Positions 2,210 through 15,090 of a stretch of 64,000 bases of DNA are shown one piece after another. Below the pieces are notes generated by a model. The model saw nothing but the letters and a program-made list of their open reading frames with translations. It was not told the DNA's origin and did not search any database. The stretch lies in the NCBI GenBank assembly GCA_963724765.1, contig CAVRVY010000001.1:256001-320000 (forward strand), written 5' to 3'. Positions within the stretch are counted from its first letter, which is position 1, and each line of letters opens with the position of its first letter. The position numbers and the translations under genes are program-made. The DNA comes from an uncultured delta proteobacterium. Lineage in GTDB: Bacteria > Desulfobacterota > Binatia > Binatales > Binataceae.

Positions 2210-2595
2210 CGAAGCTGCATTTACTTGGCGCGGGTTTGCTCGTGGCTGGGGCATTTATGGTGGCCGCCGTGAGACCGGCGTCCGCGGAGACCGTAACGGT
2301 CCAGATGTTCGACACGCCGGCAAAATTCGTTCCGGACCCCGTAAAGGTTAAGGTCGGCGATACCATAAAATGGGTGAACAAGGGCGAGACAGTTCACACC
2401 GCTACTACGGACCCGTCCACGGCGCCCGACCCAAGCTGGGCGTCGGTGCCGAAGGGGGCGGAGACGTTCGACTCGGGTTATCTGAACGCGGGGGAGGATT
2501 GGAGCTACACGTTTAAGGTTCCCGGGGTTTATCACTACTTCTGCACGACGCACGTAAAGGAAGGGATGAAAGGCGAAATCGACGTCGGGCAATAG
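2206..2595 (+). CDS. Plastocyanin/azurin-family blue copper protein
   Basis: Signal peptide; VKVGDTIKWVN, VHTAT and YFCTTHVKEGMKG type 1 copper ligands (H, C, H, M). Confidence 0.9.
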   Translation: MTKLHLLGAGLLVAGAFMVAAVRPASAETVTVQMFDTPAKFVPDPVKVKVGDTIKWVNKGETVHTATTDPSTAPDPSWASVPKGAETFDSGYLNAGEDWSYTFKVPGVYHYFCTTHVKEGMKGEIDVGQ

Positions 2596-7421: not shown

Positions 7422-7643
7422 TGGGCGCTAACCGGGCGGGTACAACAATCTCAAGGGCGAAAGCCCTAAGAAACCGGCGTGACCTTGACTTGCGGGCGAT
7501 GGTTGAGCCGAAACACTCGGCGCGTGAAGGAGTCTTTCGGCCGAGGTTACCGGTGGACCAATGCGAAGAGCGTCGGCGACGCGGGAGTTGCAAATCGTGC
7601 GCGGATGCACCGTTAACCGCGTGCATGAGGGAGGAACTCAGTC

Positions 7644-8086
7644 ATGGCCGTCAGCGTAAAGAAAGCCATTCTGTGGCGCAGGGAGGTCGAAGACAACCAC
7701 CCCGGGATGCTCGCCAATACCCTCCAACCACTTTCCGAAGCAGGCGCCGACCTGCAAGTGGTCATGGCCTATCGCTACCCGGGCGACCAGAACAAGGCCG
7801 CTATCGAGCTGCATCCGGTTTCCGGTAAGAAGTCCGCAGCAGCGGCGCAAACAGCGGGGCTCGCCCCCTCCGTCCATCTCCACCCTGCTGGTCGAAGGCG
7901 ACAATCGGCCGGGGCGGGGCCACGCGATCGCCAAAGCGGTCGGCGATGCGGGGGATCAACATGAGCTTCGTGATGGCGTTGGTGGTGGGCCGAAGGTACT
8001 CGGTGCTGCTCGGCTTCGAGAACGAGGCTGACGCAAGCAAGGCCGCAACCCTAATCAAAAGAGCCATGGCGAGTGGCAGGAAGTAG
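7644..8086 (+). pseudogene. Tandem ACT-domain protein with a +1 frameshift near 7870
   Basis: EDNHPGMLANTLQPLSEAGADL; after the shift LLVEGDNRPGRGHAIAKAVGDAGINMSF, ending at TAG 8084-8086; RBS GAGGAGG. Confidence 0.75.
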
Positions 8087-8205
8087 TCCCGCGCGTTCGG
8101 GGGAGCGAGGGAGTTCAGTAGATTGTTGCGGCTGGCGCAAGTCCTGTGGGTCGTGATCACTCCGTCCGGCCATCATCAGCGTCTCGTAATACTGAGAGTT
8201 CGAAT

Positions 8206-8228
8206 CGGGAGTATATACTTAACGCAAT
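8206..8228 (+). repeat. Left terminal inverted repeat of the IS1595 element
   Basis: Matches the reverse complement of 14424-14446 at 22/23 nt. Confidence 0.92.
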
Positions 8229-8749
8229 TTCTCGGCCTGACCGTTTTCCCTGACGCCCGCTTCGGATCGATTGGATTCTCTGGGAAAGCGCATGTAAACC
8301 CCGTGCTGTGTTATAGACCCAATGAAAGGGGCTTGATGTTTGAACACAAATCGGAAGATATCCGACAGGCGAGCCTTCAGAATGTCGGCCATTAGAGTCT
8401 TGTTCATGTTGCCGGAAGAAAAGGAGAATTGCTGAATTGCGTGCTTTTTGATCTGGTCAAGTTCCAGGGGCGTGTAGCGTTGCGCTTTATCCTTGGTCAA
8501 TATAATCCAGCATCGTTCTCCGACGAAAGGTAACCAAATTTCGTCATCAACACCTTCTGGGAATTTATCGCGAGGGAAATGGGCGAGATGCCTTTCGTAG
8601 TGAAGGCCCGCAGAATCTAGGACGTCATGAATGGGTCGGCAATCGCTGAAATTTTCGTCTAGATAATAGACGCTCGCATCACGCTGCCGCTGCCGCGCAC
8701 TGAGCTTCCCATCTGACTGCTTCTTCGATCTCTTTTGGCGTCCGCCCAT
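8219..8749 (-). CDS. VapC45-like PIN-domain toxin
   Basis: YYLDENF, DDEIWLPFVGERCWIILTKD PIN acidic motifs; overlaps the 3' end of the DUF433 gene. Confidence 0.82.
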   Translation of the reverse strand: MGGRQKRSKKQSDGKLSARQRQRDASVYYLDENFSDCRPIHDVLDSAGLHYERHLAHFPRDKFPEGVDDEIWLPFVGERCWIILTKDKAQRYTPLELDQIKKHAIQQFSFSSGNMNKTLMADILKARLSDIFRFVFKHQAPFIGSITQHGVYMRFPRESNRSEAGVRENGQAEKLR

Positions 8750-9389
8750 ACTCCTCTGCTAGGTCTTGGATGGATTCCCGCGCATTAAAGCGGGCGGCTA
8801 CCACGGCAGTAGCTATACCAGTGCGGTCGATAACCGAACGACCAAAAGCAATCGTCGGAGCTATGGAAATAATTTTCGGCTCATCTGTATTGATGTTGTA
8901 CACAAAAGGAAAAAACTTGCCGCCGGTCGCAGTCCATTTAATTCTCTGTAGATAAGTGTCTAAAACTTCTTTCATGATGATTTGACCGCCGTGCGTAAGA
9001 TTGATGATTACCTCATTCGTAGTAGCAATAAATAGGTTCATGCCATCCGTGCTAAGAGACGGCTCTAAGAGGGGATGTGGGGATGGTTGGATTTTGGCTA
9101 GCATTTCTAATGACTTACGCACCGCTAAAATCTGCATTTCGTGTGTTGTTCGAAGAGATTGCAGCACGTGACACTCCAGCAAATTTAAAAAAGAGAGTGT
9201 CGGCGGCTCATAGGTCGGTAGTGTTATCAGGGCGGTCGCGGGCGCGGACTTTTTTCCGATAGCCCAATACCGCAAGGTTTGATAGGGAACGCGGGCATAC
9301 CGCGCTGCGACCGCGAGACTATACGCCGGTGCGTCCAAGATTGGATGCTCCCCGTCGAACGGGCGCTTGAAAATTGACCTTGCCTCCAC
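8679..9389 (-). CDS. DUF433-domain antitoxin (VapB45-like)
   Basis: N-terminal HTH (AARYARVPYQTLRYW), LSFLNLLE, C-terminal PTIAFGRSVIDRTGIAT...GRTPKEIEEAVRWE. Confidence 0.88.
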   Translation of the reverse strand: MEARSIFKRPFDGEHPILDAPAYSLAVAARYARVPYQTLRYWAIGKKSAPATALITLPTYEPPTLSFLNLLECHVLQSLRTTHEMQILAVRKSLEMLAKIQPSPHPLLEPSLSTDGMNLFIATTNEVIINLTHGGQIIMKEVLDTYLQRIKWTATGGKFFPFVYNINTDEPKIISIAPTIAFGRSVIDRTGIATAVVAARFNARESIQDLAEEYGRTPKEIEEAVRWEAQCAAAAA

Positions 9390-9408
9390 AGCCCTGATTG
9401 TATATCAT
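9380..9408 (+). promoter_or_regulatory. Putative sigma70 promoter for the tRNA-like gene
   Basis: TTGCCT (9380-9385), 17-bp spacer, TATCAT (9403-9408). Confidence 0.4.
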
Positions 9409-9447
9409 TCTTCCCCTTCATTCAGTCAACCAAACCTTTATCGTTTT

Positions 9448-9535
9448 CGCGGCGTGCCGGAAATTGGCAGACGGACCGGTCTTGGATGTCGGCGGGCATA
9501 GTCTCGTGCGGGTTCGACTCCCGCCGCCGCGACCA
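9448..9535 (+). tRNA. Atypical tRNA: UGG (Pro) anticodon on a class II, Leu-like body with a long variable arm
   Basis: Acceptor CGCGGCG/CGCCGCG + ACCA; D arm CCG-GAAATTGGCAGA-CGG; anticodon stem CCGGT/GTCGG with loop CT-TGG-AT; 15-nt variable region; T arm GCGGG-TTCGACT-CCCGC. Confidence 0.9.
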
Positions 9536-9543
9536 TTTTTTAC

Positions 9544-9572
9544 TTGACACAAGTATCATGATAGAGTAGAGT
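9544..9572 (+). promoter_or_regulatory. Sigma70 promoter of the transposase (probably a leaderless transcript)
   Basis: TTGACA (9544-9549), 17 bp, TAGAGT (9567-9572), 6 nt, ATG 9579; no Shine-Dalgarno sequence. Confidence 0.7.
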
Positions 9573-9578
9573 TACATC

Positions 9579-10610
9579 ATGGCAAAGGGGCAAAGAAAAG
9601 CGGGGTCTGATAAGTCGGCCATCGTGGCCGCGCTGCCAAAGGCCTGCGCTGATGAACCAGCGGCGGTCGAGTTCATCGAATCATTGCGGTGGGGCGTGAC
9701 GGGCCCGTGCTGCCTGCATTGCGGCGACACCGATGTTTACAAAATGACAGACCGCAAGACTGGCCAGCGCAACAGGCGCTTTCTGTGGAAGTGTAACGGC
9801 TGCCAGAAGCAATACACCGTTCGCGTTGGCACCGTGATGGAAGATAGCCGAATTCCGCTGCGCCATTGGGCATACGCGCTGTGGAAATCCTGTTCATCGA
9901 AGAAGGGCGTCAGCGCGTTGCAGATCAAGCGCGAGACCGGACTGACCTATAAATCGGCGCTGTTCATGATGCATCGCATCCGCTTCGGTATGGCCGAAGA
10001 TTGGACCGGGCAACCCAAGCTGAGCGGGACCGTGGAAGCCGATGAAACCTACGTCGGCGGCAAGCCGCGAAACAAGCATCCGCAAGGGCGACCGGGACCA
10101 CGAAAGGGTTGGCAGGATAAAAAGACTGCGGTGGCCGCATTAGTTGAGCGTGGTGGCAAGATCCGCTCATTCGTCACTGTGAACGTGACTGCCGCGAACG
10201 TGGGTAAGATTCTCCAAGAGAACGTAACAACGGATTCGCACCTGATGACTGACAGCTCTCCGATCTACCGCAGCGGAATCGGAAAGCCATTTGCGAGCCA
10301 CGGCATGACCGACCATTCCAAGGGCGAGTACGCGAAGCCGGATGGCACACACAGCAATACGGTTGAATCCGCCTTCTCATTGCTCAAGCGCGGCATCTAT
10401 GGAACTTTCCACAACGTCAGCCGCAAACATTTGCATCGTTACGTCGCCGAGTTTGATTTCCGCTGGAACGCGCGAAAAGTGGACGATGGCGAGCGATTGG
10501 CGCGCGCGATCCGAAGCGCGGAAGGTAAGCGGCTGCGGTACAAGGAACCATTGGCGACTTTGCCTCCGACCCCCGCACAAGGCAGACCATTTGAAACATT
10601 GCGCGGATAA
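9579..10610 (+). CDS. IS1595-family DDE transposase
   Basis: Zn ribbon CLHCG...CNGC, KKGVSALQIKRE HTH, VEADETY, MTDSSPIY, HSNTVES, YVAEFDFRWN. Confidence 0.95.
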   Translation: MAKGQRKAGSDKSAIVAALPKACADEPAAVEFIESLRWGVTGPCCLHCGDTDVYKMTDRKTGQRNRRFLWKCNGCQKQYTVRVGTVMEDSRIPLRHWAYALWKSCSSKKGVSALQIKRETGLTYKSALFMMHRIRFGMAEDWTGQPKLSGTVEADETYVGGKPRNKHPQGRPGPRKGWQDKKTAVAALVERGGKIRSFVTVNVTAANVGKILQENVTTDSHLMTDSSPIYRSGIGKPFASHGMTDHSKGEYAKPDGTHSNTVESAFSLLKRGIYGTFHNVSRKHLHRYVAEFDFRWNARKVDDGERLARAIRSAEGKRLRYKEPLATLPPTPAQGRPFETLRG

Positions 10611-10627
10611 GCTGTCGAGCCAACAGG

Positions 10628-13600
10628 ATGAGTAAGACAATCGACCAAGGCAAAGAAGAAATTGCGGCGCTCTGCCGATACTTCACTACTAACCGGCGGG
10701 AGTTTAACCCCGGAGCCAAAGAAGCCCACATCCGTCAAACATTGATCGACCCTTTCTTTGAAGCCCTAGGCTGGGATGTCCGTAACAAGACAATGGCTGC
10801 GCCTCAGTACCGGGAAGTCATTCCCGAGGACAGCCTAGACGTGGAAGGGCAACAAAAGGCCCCGGATTATACCTTCCGCGTCGGCACCTTGCCGAAGTTT
10901 TACGTCGAAGCCAAGAAGTGCGGTGTCAATATCGGTGCGGACTCGGGTCCGGCCTTCCAGCTTCGTCGATATGGATGGAGCGCCAAACTCGGGTTGTCCG
11001 TTCTCACCAACTTTGAGGAACTCGCCATTTACGATTGCACCGCCCGCCCGCGTCAGAGCGACAAAGCGAGCAATGCGAGAATCCAGTTCTTCCGCTACGA
11101 CGAATATCCCGACCGTTGGCGTGAATTGTGGGACCTGTTTTCCCGCGAAGCGGTCTGGTCCGGGGCGTTTGACCAGTACGTCGCGTCCAAGCGGAAACGT
11201 GGTACGTCCGAAGTAGATGCGGAGTTTTTGAAAGAAATGGAGAGCTGGCGGCTCGCGCTGGCCGGAAATATCGCCCTTCGAAACAAAAACCTGTCTTTGG
11301 ACGATCTGAACGCTGCAGTGCAACTCACGATTGACAGGGTGGTATTCCTTCGCATGGCGGAAGACCGAGGGCTAGAGCCTTACGAGCAACTTCTGAAGCT
11401 CTGCGAACGGCCCGGCATTTACCCGCGCTTCATTCGCGGTATATGCCGCAGGGCTGACCAAAAGTACAACTCTGGGCTGTTCCATTTCCAGAAGGAAAGC
11501 GGGGTATCCGAAGACCCCGACCGGATCACGCCGAAGCTGGCGACGGATGACAAGATTTTCAAGCCGATCCTTGAAAGCCTGTATTTCTCCCACGGCTCGC
11601 CCTATCACTTCGGTGTTCTACCCGTCGAAATCCTTGGAACCGTCTATGAACGGTTCTTGGGCAAGGTGATCCGGTTAACGGCAGGCCACCACGCAAGGAT
11701 TGAAGAAAAACCTGAAGTGCGCAAAGCCGGTGGCGTCTACTACACACCAGCTTACATTGTCGATTACATCGTCAAGCACACCGTCGCCGCGCAGATTGAA
11801 GGGCGAAGTCCCACACAACTGGCCGGGGAAAAGGACAGAGCGCCTTTCCGTGTCTTGGACATGGCTTGCGGAAGTGGATCGTTCCTGTTGAGTGCCTATC
11901 GGTGCCTTCTGGACTACTGCCTGAATTGGTACATCGAACACAAGCCGGACAACTTTAGGAAGGCCGTTTACAAGGACCCCCGCAACGGTCAATGGAGACT
12001 CAAGATAGAGGAAAAGAAACGGATTCTTACGACGCATATCTTCGGCGTGGACATCGACCTTCAGGCCGTGGAAGTATCTAAGCTGTCTCTGTTGCTGAAG
12101 GTGTTGGAAGGCGAAACGGATCAGAGTCTGTCTTTGAGCCAGCTTCCCTTTGGCGACCGCGCCCTGCCTAATCTGGCAGACAACATTAAGTGCGGCAATT
12201 CTCTAATCGGCCCGGATTATTTCACCGACAAGCTGTTTCTCGACCCCGAGGAAATGAAGCGGGTCAATCCGCTTGACTGGAAACAGCGCTTCCCCGATAC
12301 GATAAAGAGTGGAGGCTTTGATTGTATCATCGGCAACCCGCCGTACCTAAAAATTGAACATATTGTCGAAGGTGACCGGAAATATTTTTCGCTAGGCTTC
12401 GCCTCCTTCATGAAGAGATACGACACCTACGGGCTATTCGTCGAGCGTTCGCTTGTCCTTCTCAAGCCAAAGGGCCTGTTCGGCATGATTATTCCTTCGA
12501 CGATTTTGAACAACCTTAGCTTCAGCCAGCTTCGTAAGATGCTGGTCGAATTAACGTCCATCTCTTCGATAGTCAATTTGGGCGGAAAGGTCTTCCAAGG
12601 AGTAAACAACGATACCGTCATCTTGACTTTCGCAAAGGGAAAGGACCCCGTCGGCACAACGCAGATTCTCGACGTGCAGAAGTATGGTGGCGGGTTGGCA
12701 ACAGCGGCAGCTATCGGTACGAAGGATTTGTCTCGCGCGGCGGCGCCCCCGCAATATGTGTTTGAACTACGCATGTCGAAGGCGGCAGACTCCATCCTCG
12801 CTAAAATGCGCAGCGGCGGTCTGGCTCTTGGTGAAATCTGCTCATGCTTTCAAGGCTTCGTTACTGGGGGGAATGATGCCTACATTGTGGACTCAAAAAG
12901 TATCCGCGACGAAAACCTCGAAAAAGAGGTGTGCAAACCCGCTGTCTTTGGCGACCAAGTGTCCCGCTACGGCAGGCCGAGCCCCCAAGGATTCGTCATT
13001 TACCTGACCAGAGACAGCAATCTGGATGAATTTCCCAACATTAAGGCAAGGCTTGAACCTCACAAGGCCAACCTCAAAACGAAGCGAGAAGTGAAACTAG
13101 GAAGGCAGCCGTGGTACTCGCTGCACTGGCCTCGCGTTCAAGAAAATTTTGAACGTTCCCCGAAGATTTTGGTACAAGCAATAAGAAACTTAGCATTGAA
13201 AAGACGGATAATCGCCACGCTGGACTCTCGAGGTCTCTACGCCGATCACACGCTTAACGTGCTGTACACGGAGCATCAAGAATATGACATTATATTCGTG
13301 CTGGGTATTCTGAATTCCGCGCTTGTGAATTTCCTGTTCTCGAAGAAGTATATCGACATCAACATCAAAGGCGTGTATCTTACCGAGGCCCCCATTCCCA
13401 GAATTAACTTCTCTGCTCCTGCCGACAGAAAACGCCATGACCAAATGGTAACGCTGGTTAATTCGATACTCGGATTGCACAACGAAGTGGCCGAGACGAA
13501 GTCCGCCGCACAAAAGGCCATCCTTCAGCGCCAGATTGATTCGACGGACGCCGAGATCGACCGGCTCGTATATGATCTGTACGGCCTGACGGCTGAAGAG

Positions 13601-13657
13601 ATCGCGACAGTGGAAGGAGCAACCGCGAGCGTCAACCGAGTGAGCGTCCAAGAATGA
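10628..13657 (+). CDS. Type IIG (Eco57I-like) restriction endonuclease-N6-adenine methyltransferase fusion
   Basis: N-terminal PDY...VEAKK nuclease motif, GVYYTP, VLDMACGSGSFL (motif I), IIGNPPY (motif IV), TaqI-C-like TRD and EIDRLVYDLYGLT tail. Confidence 0.92.
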   Translation: MSKTIDQGKEEIAALCRYFTTNRREFNPGAKEAHIRQTLIDPFFEALGWDVRNKTMAAPQYREVIPEDSLDVEGQQKAPDYTFRVGTLPKFYVEAKKCGVNIGADSGPAFQLRRYGWSAKLGLSVLTNFEELAIYDCTARPRQSDKASNARIQFFRYDEYPDRWRELWDLFSREAVWSGAFDQYVASKRKRGTSEVDAEFLKEMESWRLALAGNIALRNKNLSLDDLNAAVQLTIDRVVFLRMAEDRGLEPYEQLLKLCERPGIYPRFIRGICRRADQKYNSGLFHFQKESGVSEDPDRITPKLATDDKIFKPILESLYFSHGSPYHFGVLPVEILGTVYERFLGKVIRLTAGHHARIEEKPEVRKAGGVYYTPAYIVDYIVKHTVAAQIEGRSPTQLAGEKDRAPFRVLDMACGSGSFLLSAYRCLLDYCLNWYIEHKPDNFRKAVYKDPRNGQWRLKIEEKKRILTTHIFGVDIDLQAVEVSKLSLLLKVLEGETDQSLSLSQLPFGDRALPNLADNIKCGNSLIGPDYFTDKLFLDPEEMKRVNPLDWKQRFPDTIKSGGFDCIIGNPPYLKIEHIVEGDRKYFSLGFASFMKRYDTYGLFVERSLVLLKPKGLFGMIIPSTILNNLSFSQLRKMLVELTSISSIVNLGGKVFQGVNNDTVILTFAKGKDPVGTTQILDVQKYGGGLATAAAIGTKDLSRAAAPPQYVFELRMSKAADSILAKMRSGGLALGEICSCFQGFVTGGNDAYIVDSKSIRDENLEKEVCKPAVFGDQVSRYGRPSPQGFVIYLTRDSNLDEFPNIKARLEPHKANLKTKREVKLGRQPWYSLHWPRVQENFERSPKILVQAIRNLALKRRIIATLDSRGLYADHTLNVLYTEHQEYDIIFVLGILNSALVNFLFSKKYIDINIKGVYLTEAPIPRINFSAPADRKRHDQMVTLVNSILGLHNEVAETKSAAQKAILQRQIDSTDAEIDRLVYDLYGLTAEEIATVEGATASVNRVSVQE

Positions 13658-13806
13658 CCAAGAAGCAGAAGACCGAGCGAAAGCCTCCCGGCCCCGCACC
13701 CGAAGTGCTGAAAATCGAGGGCGACTGGAAAGACGCCATGAAACAGCTGATTTCCAAGAAGCGCCCAGTCGGTGGTCGGCCCAAGATCGAAAAGAAACGC
13801 GGCTGA
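13654..13806 (+). CDS. Small basic hypothetical protein (50 aa, not in the ORF track)
   Basis: ATGA overlap with the RM stop; MTKKQKTERKPPGPAPEVLKIEGDWKDAMKQLISKKRP... Confidence 0.6.
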   Translation: MTKKQKTERKPPGPAPEVLKIEGDWKDAMKQLISKKRPVGGRPKIEKKRG

Positions 13807-13837
13807 ACGATCGTCCCCAACACAGGAGGCACGAACG

Positions 13838-14011
13838 ATGGCCAAGGTAGCCTCGTATCATACGAACTCGATGGAGTATCCGCCCAGCCACCGGAACGTT
13901 TACCACGATCACGACGATTGCCCATATGGGAAGCGCATTAAGCCACAACACCTCATTCGCAACTCGACCGGGGGCAAGCCGCGCTGCGATGAGTGCATCA
14001 AGCTGGGCTAA
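13838..14011 (+). CDS. Small His/Cys-rich putative zinc-binding protein (57 aa)
   Basis: RBS AGGAGG; VYHDHDDC...RCDEC. Confidence 0.7.
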   Translation: MAKVASYHTNSMEYPPSHRNVYHDHDDCPYGKRIKPQHLIRNSTGGKPRCDECIKLG

Positions 14012-14373
14012 TTGCGTGCTCTAAATACGATTTCCCAATGCGGTCCGTTCGGCTCGTTGCCGTCCAGTATGGACCAGATGCGCCGCAGGAACAGGATCGG
14101 CAGCCCGTAGGCTAGGCAGACACCGACAGCGCGCCAGCCCGCTTCGGGCGTTCCGTAAAACCTGACGCTCGGCTCTGGGTAGGAGTGCCCCGGGCCGCCT
14201 TCGCAGGACTCGAACGTTTCGATCCCTTCGGCTTGGAGCCGTTCGACGGCTTTGCGGATGCCGGGATCTAGCCCTCGAAGGTCGCCGTTCAGCCATGCCG
14301 GTGGATGCTGATCTGTAGGCAGCGGCGACGCTTTCCAAAGCTTACCGCGTTTCGATTTCTTGTTTTTCGACAT
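14008..14373 (-). CDS. Hypothetical protein with a LDPGI...GIETFESCEG motif
   Basis: 121-aa ORF just inside the right end of the element, converging on the small Zn protein. Confidence 0.7.
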   Translation of the reverse strand: MSKNKKSKRGKLWKASPLPTDQHPPAWLNGDLRGLDPGIRKAVERLQAEGIETFESCEGGPGHSYPEPSVRFYGTPEAGWRAVGVCLAYGLPILFLRRIWSILDGNEPNGPHWEIVFRARN

Positions 14374-14423
14374 CGGAGATTCAATTAGGCCGACTTAACG
14401 ATGTATTAGTGAGACTTTCGGGG

Positions 14424-14446
14424 ATTGCGTTAAGTACATACTCCCG
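14424..14446 (-). repeat. Right terminal inverted repeat of the IS1595 element
   Basis: attgcgttaagtacatactcccg, followed by the target duplication GTTAGAAT (14447-14454). Confidence 0.92.
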
Positions 14447-15090
14447 GTTAGAATTCATCCCGCTCCGCCACGCAGTCCCAGATTTGATGATTCTCCGGGC
14501 ATAACCGCAAAAAGCGCGCGTGTGGGGGGGGCGATGCGCCCGCCCACCGACACCGGAGAGAGCTCAGATGTCGAATTATGCCGCGTCGCTTCGATTTTCT
14601 CTCTGTAGGCGAGGAATTCGGTGCCGATGCCCTGGGTGAACACATTACACGATAGAAATCTGCGGACATCGCGAGCGGTGAATTTCATGACGCCAAGCGC
14701 CCTGCGCGGGCATCCGCGCATGGATTTGCAGCTGCGGCCGCTTGCCGCAACTGAGGCAACAGCAGCTAATGGCGAAGAGTGACGACTTCCAGTTCCGGGT
14801 CCACCCGGTTCCGGAGCCGGCAGGTCAGCAAAAGAACCGATCGCAGACATGAGCGCGGTGGAGTCCCGCCAGAAGCCGGGACTGGCGTGCAATCAGTTGG
14901 ACAGGTCGGAAATTCGGCGCATCCTTGCTCAGGGAGAGCTCGTTCGAACGTGTTTATAGGAAGCCGTATACGCCTCGAGGATTCGGCGCAGGCGCAATTC
15001 GCCGAACACGGTGAAGTGATGCAGGCACTCTCGGTTACATTTAGGTAACAAAGCAACCTTCCTCAAAGGAGAGGACACGCATATGCCCCT

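Follow-up and report, generated by a model that had tools for sequence, protein, structure and literature searches.

The locus described here raises the question of which amino acid a transfer RNA (tRNA) carries, and whether it serves translation at all, when its body and its anticodon point to different amino acids. In 64,000 nucleotides (nt) of DNA from an uncultured delta proteobacterium of the Binataceae (assembly GCA_963724765.1, contig CAVRVY010000001.1, positions 256,001 to 320,000; this whole stretch is hereafter the window), a class II tRNA gene of 88 nt occupies positions 9448-9535 on the + strand, inside a transposon of the IS1595 family, and combines a leucine-type body with the anticodon UGG (9483-9485) and an encoded CCA. 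The original prediction, made from the letters alone, treated this gene as a chimera of a leucine body, a proline anticodon and a proline acceptor end. We addressed the question by comparing the gene with the tRNAs of its host, with relatives found through the neighbouring transposase and through the tRNA itself, and with mismatched tRNAs that had already been described. This comparison shows that the window tRNA is not a single chimera but a member of a large, conserved, transposon-borne and apparently undescribed family whose body, judged by fold and identity positions, is of leucine type and whose anticodon is that of proline (NGG). Natural tRNAs with mismatched body and anticodon are rare, and they bear on changes of the genetic code and on mistranslation that is tolerated or exploited.

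The window tRNA and its family

ARAGORN placed a tRNA-Pro(tgg) at 9448-9535 on the + strand. The Rfam tRNA model RF00005 scored the same gene at 41.6 bits in E-value mode, relative to a gathering score of 29, although the fast gathering-mode scan of the whole window had missed it. The structural features that had been claimed could all be read directly from the sequence. The gene folds as an intact, canonical 7/5 cloverleaf, with an acceptor stem (CGCGGCG/CGCCGCG) that gives C1:G72 and is followed by A73 and CCA; a D arm with a 3-pair stem, a Leu-like loop (GAAATTGGCAGA), A14, A15:U48 and G18G19; an anticodon stem (CCGGU/GUCGG) in which two G.U pairs, G30.U40 and U31.G39, adjoin the loop; an anticodon loop (CUUGGAU) with A37, at 9486, in place of G37, the site of m1G37; a variable region of 15 nt (CGGGCATAGTCTCGT); and a perfect T arm. 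Of the features of a tRNA-Leu it has the long variable arm, the 3-pair D stem, A14, A15:U48, G18G19 and A73, and lacks a leucine anticodon (NAG or YAA), while of those of a tRNA-Pro it has G35/G36 and C1:G72 with A73, and lacks the short class I body, G15:C48 and G37. The TGG anticodon is not an assembly slip, because contigs from two metagenome runs cover it, one (X7) spanning 9430-9676 with 0 differences to the window and the other (X2) spanning 9459-9710 with 1 difference, its position not listed; one of the two runs could be the window's own source. A candidate promoter, TTGCCT-17-TATCAT (9380-9408, + strand, 9 of 12 consensus matches), lies upstream of the gene, and the consensus scan of 9250-9650 returned 3 sites relative to 0.2 expected from shuffles.

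The host genome (G000; 5.4 Mb in 4 contigs, 62% G+C) gave 59 ARAGORN tRNA calls, several of which, away from this locus, are doubtful. It holds ordinary class I tRNA-Pro genes for GGG, CGG and UGG (75-78 nt, with G15) as well as five tRNA-Leu genes, and the window tRNA is therefore an extra gene, the only class II NGG tRNA among these calls. As the host's own tRNA-Pro set is of the short class I kind, a long-arm tRNA-Pro(UGG) is not the housekeeping form here. Plain pairwise identity to the host tRNAs (69-74% for tRNA-Leu, 73% for one tRNA-Ser and 69% for tRNA-Pro(GGG)) did not discriminate between isotypes, and we therefore used covariance-model scores as a measure of resemblance. The family model R1, built from 15 members (alignment A1), scored the window tRNA at 79 bits, the five host tRNA-Leu at 73.4-78.9 bits, the four host tRNA-Ser at 43.5-56.9 bits and the three host tRNA-Pro at 39.4-55.8 bits.

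Relatives of the gene were sought in three ways. At the DNA level, 61 related genomes yielded a single full-length relative (locus L002 of genome G019), an 83-nt class II tRNA with UGG and G37 that lies about 49 nt upstream of an IS1595 transposase gene and differs from the window tRNA by compensatory changes in the anticodon stem and variable arm. A transposase search of 185,579 species genomes led to 46 loci, in Binatia and 'Deltaproteobacteria' metagenome-assembled genomes (MAGs), Acidobacteriota, Planctomycetota, Verrucomicrobiota and others, to which R1 and ARAGORN were applied; L002 and L038 are the same sequence and were counted once. The same genome collection was scanned with a pattern consisting of a Leu-type D arm, six free bases and YYNGGR, which occurred in at least 120 stretches. 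Among the 80 loci examined, 58 pattern sites matched R1 and 49 were accepted as full-length members, two of them duplicating earlier loci, and these added hosts in Terriglobia, Gemmatimonadota, Chloroflexota, Myxococcota and several Alphaproteobacteria. The resulting set comprised 66 non-duplicate members, 19 reached by way of the transposase, whatever their anticodon, and 47 found by the pattern.

The anticodon of the 19 transposase-found members was UGG in 15 and AGG in 4, so that homologues of the window tRNA carry NGG and not the TAG of an ordinary tRNA-Leu. Over all 66 members, the anticodon was UGG in 57, AGG in 7, GGG in 1 and CGG in 1, always within a 7-nt loop (66/66); A73 was present in 64 and U48 in 65; and A14, A15, G35 and G36 were invariant in the 15-sequence alignment A1. 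Other positions varied: pair 1:72 was G:C in 51 members, C:G in 12 and G:U in 3, position 37 was A in 45 and G in 21, position 33 was U in 51 and C in 15, and the variable region measured 13-19 nt in 47 and 28-33 nt in 19. The leucine body and the proline anticodon that had been claimed for the window gene are thus family-wide, whereas the third part of that claim, the proline-like acceptor end, did not generalise, with C1:G72 in only 12 of the 66 members and G1:C72 in 51. C1:G72 instead marks certain lineages, chiefly the Binatia clade and a few others, and in two members from Binatia, L010 (CGGGGCG) and L014 (CGGGGTG), the whole acceptor stem equals that of the host tRNA-Pro. The anticodon loop of L016 (CTTGGGA) is one base, at position 35, from that of the tRNA-Leu(UAG) of the window's host (CTTAGGA).

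The fold itself has been kept. Among 15 homologues, 20 of the 24 pairs changed on both sides, and 98.3% of cells were paired, relative to 68.8% after shuffling and 40-49% when the partners were slid, with 0 of 500 shuffles reaching the observed values; because the members had been chosen for their likeness to tRNAs, pairing is favoured in this set, though compensatory change at homologous positions is not. The 17 G.U cells indicate that the functional strand is that of the tRNA. Most members have a canonical T loop (TTCRANY), which fits ribosomal use, and two acidobacterial members have odd T loops; CCA follows A73 in 22 of the 66 members and is the commonest 3-nt tail. On this comparative evidence the tRNA gene is real, under selection and not decaying, as had been argued for the window copy, whose fold is maintained in its homologues by compensatory changes.

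Outside the cloverleaf, most members have a GC-rich hairpin 0-25 nt 5' of the tRNA (for example L010, L048, L091 and L133), and the 60 nt upstream of the tRNA have a mean minimum free energy (MFE) of -22.5 kcal/mol relative to about -15 kcal/mol in controls (Wilcoxon p ~1e-6, n = 64). The window copy has no upstream hairpin (MFE -3.4). The longest variable regions belong to a subfamily of about 100 nt (L013, L014, L030, L034 and 15 pattern-found loci), in which they form long two-part hairpins; at 28-33 nt, they exceed the 15-19-nt regions of host tRNA-Ser and tRNA-Sec.

The IS1595-family transposon as a vehicle

The transposon that carries the window tRNA is 6.2 kb long (8206-14446), and the claim that the gene lies within it was borne out by repeats that bracket the tRNA on both sides. 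Terminal inverted repeats at 8206-8228 (+) and 14424-14446 (-), which form pair I1, belong to a 33-nt inverted repeat in which 8196-8228 pairs with 14424-14456. The left one is abutted by a target-site duplication (GTTCGAAT, 8198-8205) that matches its right counterpart (GTTAGAAT, 14447-14454) at 7 of 8 positions. The transposase gene (9579-10610, + strand, 343 amino acids) encodes an IS1595-family (ISXO2-like) DDE protein (DDE_Tnp_IS1595, E 1.4e-37) with a zinc ribbon (Zn_ribbon_IS1595, E 1e-8). By its DDE domain with zinc ribbon, shared inverted repeats and 7/8 duplication, the element belongs with the IS1595 insertion sequences that carry passenger genes, in which a DDE transposase whose zinc ribbon is N-terminal goes together with inverted repeats and a duplication of 8 bp. 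The inverted-repeat core, GGGAGTAT(A/G)TACTTAACGCAA, also forms the termini of related elements from other genomes, and these measure 1.7-5.2 kb and have 8-bp target duplications that are exact in, for example, L015.

Among the 27 related elements with an uninterrupted transposase gene, 17 carry a full class II NGG tRNA within 3 kb, four (L019, L020, L021 and L026) carry another tRNA-like gene, and six (L011, L017, L031, L032, L033 and L045) have no tRNA within their 3-kb flanks. Two elements with broken transposases (L018 and L025) also hold a class II NGG tRNA, and the heavily decayed elements L036 and L051 hold tRNA remnants only. The tRNA is present on both major branches of the transposase tree, with AGG limited to the acidobacterial clade, and in related elements it lies inside the inverted repeats, where it either precedes the transposase gene and shares its strand, as in the window, or follows closely behind that gene on the other strand. 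The co-conservation that had been put forward for testing in homologues beside IS1595 transposases was seen for the long arm and for NGG, mostly UGG, and failed for C1:G72, which only the 12 members mentioned above possess.

The pattern-found members extend this association, in that an IS1595-family transposase gene lay in the same locus (of 8 kb or less) in 31 of the 49 accepted among the 80 loci examined; neighbours of the rest included an IS1-like DDE protein, a resolvase and SRAP. In viral contigs, the pattern occurred in 25 stretches, of which 13 were called by ARAGORN as class II NGG tRNAs, and nine loci also had the transposase. One of the viral loci, L198, lies within an array of irregular tRNAs on a 327-kb contig.

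A second mismatch of identity and anticodon was found on the same vehicle. L020, from a Myxococcota MAG, has at 2495-2582 (- strand) a Ser-type class II tRNA with the acceptor stem GGAGAGG, G73 and CCA, and with the leucine anticodon CAA, inside an IS1595 element whose ends are at 2027 and 5631.

Charging and decoding

Bacterial leucyl-tRNA synthetase (LeuRS) reads A73, the D loop and the tertiary core and ignores the anticodon. Prolyl-tRNA synthetase (ProRS) reads G35/G36, and the bacterial type also G72/A73. As the invariant positions of the family are the leucine set together with G35/G36, we take LeuRS to charge the tRNA and the tRNA to serve as a working adaptor for CCN codons, placing leucine at proline codons, with the window copy perhaps accepted by ProRS too; we give this reading a probability of roughly 45%. 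The tRNA would be transcribed from its own promoter and processed like any tRNA, LeuRS would charge it without reading the anticodon, and the leucine-charged tRNA would then read CCN codons, causing proline-to-leucine missense at a low, tolerated level. In the window's sub-lineage, the acceptor end has become proline-like (C1:G72 with A73), and this, together with G35/G36, may let the host's anticodon-driven ProRS charge the tRNA as well, giving a mixed Leu/Pro adaptor. By its profile scores, this ProRS is of the archaeal/eukaryote-like type (571 bits to TIGR00408, above the cut-off, and 57 bits to TIGR00409, below it). A possible benefit would be that of a stress, maintenance or addiction-type cargo beside restriction-modification and toxin-antitoxin genes. 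What the data show directly is the gene, its fold and conservation, the constant NGG, the leucine-type body, the link to the transposon and the ordinary tRNA-Pro set of the host; transcription, charging, decoding and the benefit to the transposon are steps that we infer.

Precedents for charging by the body come from yeast and from E. coli. The engineered yeast tRNA-Leu(UGG) and tRNA-Ser(UGG) follow the same logic, an anticodon-blind synthetase putting leucine or serine at proline codons (PMC11028032, PMC6827378), and the tRNA-Leu(UGG) strongly reduces yeast growth (PMC11028032). In E. coli, class II allo-tRNAs with serine identity and leucine anticodons insert serine at leucine codons and kill the cells on induction (PMC5389517). 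Taken together, these precedents show that class II tRNAs with foreign anticodons are charged according to their body. The yeast UGG constructs differ from the present gene in being laboratory-made, eukaryotic and growth-inhibiting, whereas the present gene is natural, conserved, mobile and bacterial.

Several observations weigh against leucine charging followed by decoding. The pattern required GG at positions 35-36 in the 47 members that it found, so that only the 19 transposase-found members inform on conservation of the anticodon. R1 was built from family members, and for that reason the leucine likeness in its scores shows resemblance and not charging. The C33 of 15/66 members, in place of the near-universal U33, and the two odd T loops may reflect a weakened or non-decoding use, and none of the 22 runs listed for the locus is RNA, which says nothing on expression either way. 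Substitution of leucine for proline is expected to be harmful, and a conserved gene would need a benefit to offset this; a mistranslating tRNA is hard to justify in viral contigs, in one of which a member stands in a tRNA array; and C1:G72, present in the window copy and in 11 further members, favours ProRS over LeuRS. Furthermore, six of the 27 intact elements lack the tRNA, which is therefore not needed for transposition.

The first alternative, which we think somewhat unlikely, is that the gene encodes a true proline tRNA on a leucine-derived class II body, charged by ProRS only and serving the element or host as a spare CCN decoder, perhaps one that escapes a tRNA nuclease such as the neighbouring PIN toxin. 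The invariance of G35 and G36, the occurrence of all four proline anticodons in the family and the presence of members in viral contigs are consistent with this, as are the complete acceptor signature of the window copy (C1:G72 with A73), the acceptor stems that L010 and L014 share with tRNA-Pro of the window's host, the anticodon-driven type of the host ProRS and the PIN-domain gene 700 nt from the tRNA. However, G1:C72 is found in 51/66 members and A37 replaces G37 in 45/66, the Leu-type A15:U48 has been kept where host tRNA-Pro has G15:C48, and in other elements the tRNA is not regularly accompanied by a PIN gene. ProRS, like other class II synthetases, docks on the variable-loop side of its substrate, where an arm of 13-33 nt would likely be in its way. 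In addition, the yeast class II UGG tRNAs are charged by the synthetase of the body to an extent that harms growth (PMC11028032).

We judge it quite unlikely that the gene specifies a tRNA-shaped RNA with a role outside translation, as a partner or regulator of the transposase or of a small protein, as a processing or insulating signal, or as a decoy. The tie of the tRNA to a backbone of transposase and small open reading frame (ORF), C33 in 15/66, variable arms of 28-33 nt in 19/66 and the GC-rich 5' hairpin of most members (not of the window copy) would fit such a role, and Mukai et al. proposed roles of this kind for some irregular tRNAs near transposable elements and toxin-antitoxin systems (PMC5389517). 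Nevertheless, it is not obvious why an RNA of this kind should conserve NGG exactly at positions 34-36 of a 7-nt loop, together with A73, CCA and canonical D and T loops, and the tRNA has no constant position or orientation with respect to the transposase gene. The variable arm is not a guide for the element ends, since its sequence is free to change from member to member while the inverted repeats are near-invariant.

That the element's genes are themselves recoded, with CCN meaning leucine in the transposase and the tRNA needed to read it, is very improbable: co-occurrence of tRNA and transposase is its only point in favour, elements without the tRNA have the same kind of transposase, the 27 aligned transposases have no leucine-majority column with minority proline (proline columns mix mostly with A, R, G and S), and the proline codons of the small ORF show no preferred codon. 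Least credible of all is that the tRNA finder was misled, or that a tRNA-Leu pseudogene in decay acquired its anticodon by a chance mutation, because, despite the doubtful ARAGORN calls elsewhere in the host genome, the family has been conserved in several phyla, with its NGG fixed and its stems altered by compensatory changes, and true remnants, such as those of L036 and L051 beside broken transposases, look quite different.

Returning to leucine charging, we propose tentatively a broader form of it, in which IS1595 elements across soil, peat and freshwater phyla would carry a leucine-charged proline-codon tRNA as their most constant cargo and thereby transmit a changed reading of the code. 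The element might turn the resulting mistranslation to its own use, for example as a dosed stress or addiction function next to its restriction-modification and toxin-antitoxin cargo, or as a booster akin to a mutator, and the lineages with C1:G72 would be evolving towards a harmless, proline-charged form. The mutA and mutC alleles of E. coli tRNA-Gly, in which an anticodon change causes low-level missense and a cell-wide mutator phenotype, recall this; they are spontaneous chromosomal mutants of class I tRNAs and are not mobile, and the likeness is one of analogy only.

Besides the engineered tRNA-Leu(UGG), two natural systems are the closest that have been described. Allo-tRNAs are natural class II tRNAs of soil bacteria, Acidobacteria included, with a mismatch of anticodon and body identity (PMC5389517); they often lie near toxin-antitoxin systems and transposon-related genes (PMC5389517, PMC7609411), and some mistranslate and are toxic in E. 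coli. They have 8/4 or 9/3 acceptor/T arrangements, a Sec-like D arm and serine identity (G73) (PMC5389517), whereas the present family has a 7/5 cloverleaf, leucine identity (A73, A15:U48), a proline anticodon and a place in the cargo of IS1595 elements, and so does not belong among them. The tRNA-ProX/ProRSx system of Streptomyces is likewise a natural bacterial mismatch of identity and anticodon that involves proline; in it, a proline body carries a foreign anticodon (Ala or Thr) and is served by a dedicated second ProRS (PMC10404621). The present family has the opposite arrangement, with a leucine body and a proline anticodon, travels in a transposon and is not of the tRNA-ProX type; the scanned cargo ORFs of the window element and related elements contained no synthetase domain. 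A full-text search of the literature found no report of a natural Leu-type tRNA with a proline anticodon or of a tRNA in IS1595 elements, the supplements of papers, which may list irregular tRNAs, lying outside that search. Mismatched tRNAs as such are already known, and what is new is the combination of leucine body and proline anticodon together with its IS1595 vehicle.

The family adds to the known mismatches a leucine body with a proline anticodon on a canonical cloverleaf, and couples this combination to one particular kind of transposon, which travels from phylum to phylum. Leucine charging would make this the first case known to us of a transposable element carrying a code-altering adaptor, and would open natural mistranslation that spreads horizontally to direct testing. 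Proline charging would show that a class II tRNA is acceptable to ProRS and that identity can be rebuilt on a foreign scaffold. Either outcome would yield natural scaffolds for tRNA engineering, with variable arms of 13-33 nt, and in annotation a 'tRNA-Pro' called from its anticodon alone can mislead.

Other genes of the element and irregular tRNAs

To the left of the tRNA, the window element carries a putative toxin gene for a PIN-like nuclease (PIN_10; 8219-8749, - strand; PF18478, E 4.4e-9) and an ORF with DUF433 and HTH_66 (8679-9389, - strand), the putative antitoxin or regulator partner of the PIN protein (PF04255, E 7.2e-7; PF21321, E 9.6e-4, below its cut-off). A repeat that pairs 9314-9340, within the latter ORF, with the anticodon-variable arm of the tRNA in inverted orientation was treated as chance (score 30, relative to 21.4 +/- 3.8 and a maximum of 38 in shuffles). 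To the right of the transposase gene lies a gene for a Type IIG restriction-modification enzyme of 1009 amino acids (Eco57I/MmeI-like; 10628-13657, + strand), with matches to Eco57I (E 3e-35), N6_Mtase, HSDR_N, MmeI_Mtase and TaqI_C. Restriction-modification genes are the usual cargo of elements of the Binatia clade, and the window element has the toxin-antitoxin pair.

The small ORF of the backbone (13654-13806, + strand) encodes a basic, proline-rich protein of 50 amino acids, with tblastn relatives in the window and 17 related loci (E < 1e-5). It is intact in most related loci, has the motif PGPxPExLKIEGDWKDA...KKRPxGGWPK, and has copies at 4201-4359 of L015, 4434-4592 of L013 and elsewhere. 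This recurrence indicates that it is part of the backbone of related elements. In minimal elements the ORF and the tRNA lie about 100 nt apart and are read in divergent directions, and the small basic protein might regulate or bind the tRNA. Pfam had no family for this ORF, for a 121-amino-acid ORF at 14008-14373 or for the left-hand cargo of minimal elements.

Between the tRNA and the transposase gene is a candidate transposase promoter, TTGACA-17-TAGAGT (9544-9572, + strand, 10 of 12 matches in the scan), and an mRNA starting from it would be leaderless or near-leaderless. Its -35 region falls within a relic of the terminal inverted repeat, of which the inner half survives (TACTTGACACAA); directly before the transposase gene of minimal elements, this place is taken by the left inverted repeat itself. 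The relic reads TACTTGAC(A/G)CAA, and the block (9541-9572) is kept at 1455-1490 of L002. This arrangement, with a -35 box in the relic ahead of a leaderless mRNA, suggests that the transposase could control its own expression by binding at the site.

Just after the transposase gene, and inside the start of the restriction-modification ORF, 10694-10733 (reverse) has a weak inverted likeness to the part of the tRNA from anticodon to T arm (score 32, relative to 21.3 +/- 3.8 and a maximum of 34 in shuffles). Other elements carry their tRNA at this place, and the likeness may be a relic of a second tRNA copy or chance.

The flanks of the element, 7600-8205 and 14447-15050, were never adjacent in the 41 genomes searched for an empty site, the host included. 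A 1.4-kb query found no second copy of the element in the host genome, matching only itself, and the other 15 IS1595-type transposase matches there are 32-41% identical; the unpublished genome G033, which turned up with these matches, underlies none of the claims made here. The right flank (14447-14680) is a repeat with 10 matches in the host genome, for which reason the transposon may be nested in another mobile or att-like region. One of the repeat copies (C1:674361-674593) abuts the 3' end of a tRNA-Ser(GCU).

Irregular tRNAs were also met in other places. The tRNA-like genes at L019 5490-5597 (-) and L087 3044-3150 (+) have 24-25 extra bases in the anticodon loop, which in L087 can pair with the anticodon region and which could represent an insertion, an intron-like piece or decay. 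At L086 5611-5685 (+) and L198 8567-8640 (+) there is a tRNA-like gene of class I whose anticodon (GCU or ACU) is that of serine and whose body is not serine-type, and this gene stands 4-5 nt from the class II NGG tRNA, upstream of it in L086 and downstream in L198. Such tandem pairs recall the irregular-tRNA polycistrons described by Mukai et al.

In the host genome outside the window, the 91-nt tRNA at C4:64275-64365 (-) combines the cysteine anticodon GCA with a long variable arm and an acceptor stem of 8 bp, and resembles the Sec-like selC* tRNA-Cys or allo-tRNA class. A Ser-like class II tRNA with a malformed anticodon arm is found at C1:1040721-1040815 (-) and is adjoined by a 74-nt gene called 'SeC(tca)' by ARAGORN (C1:1040840-1040913, -). 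The two genes (1040721-1040913) may be an irregular tRNA pair or a pseudogene.

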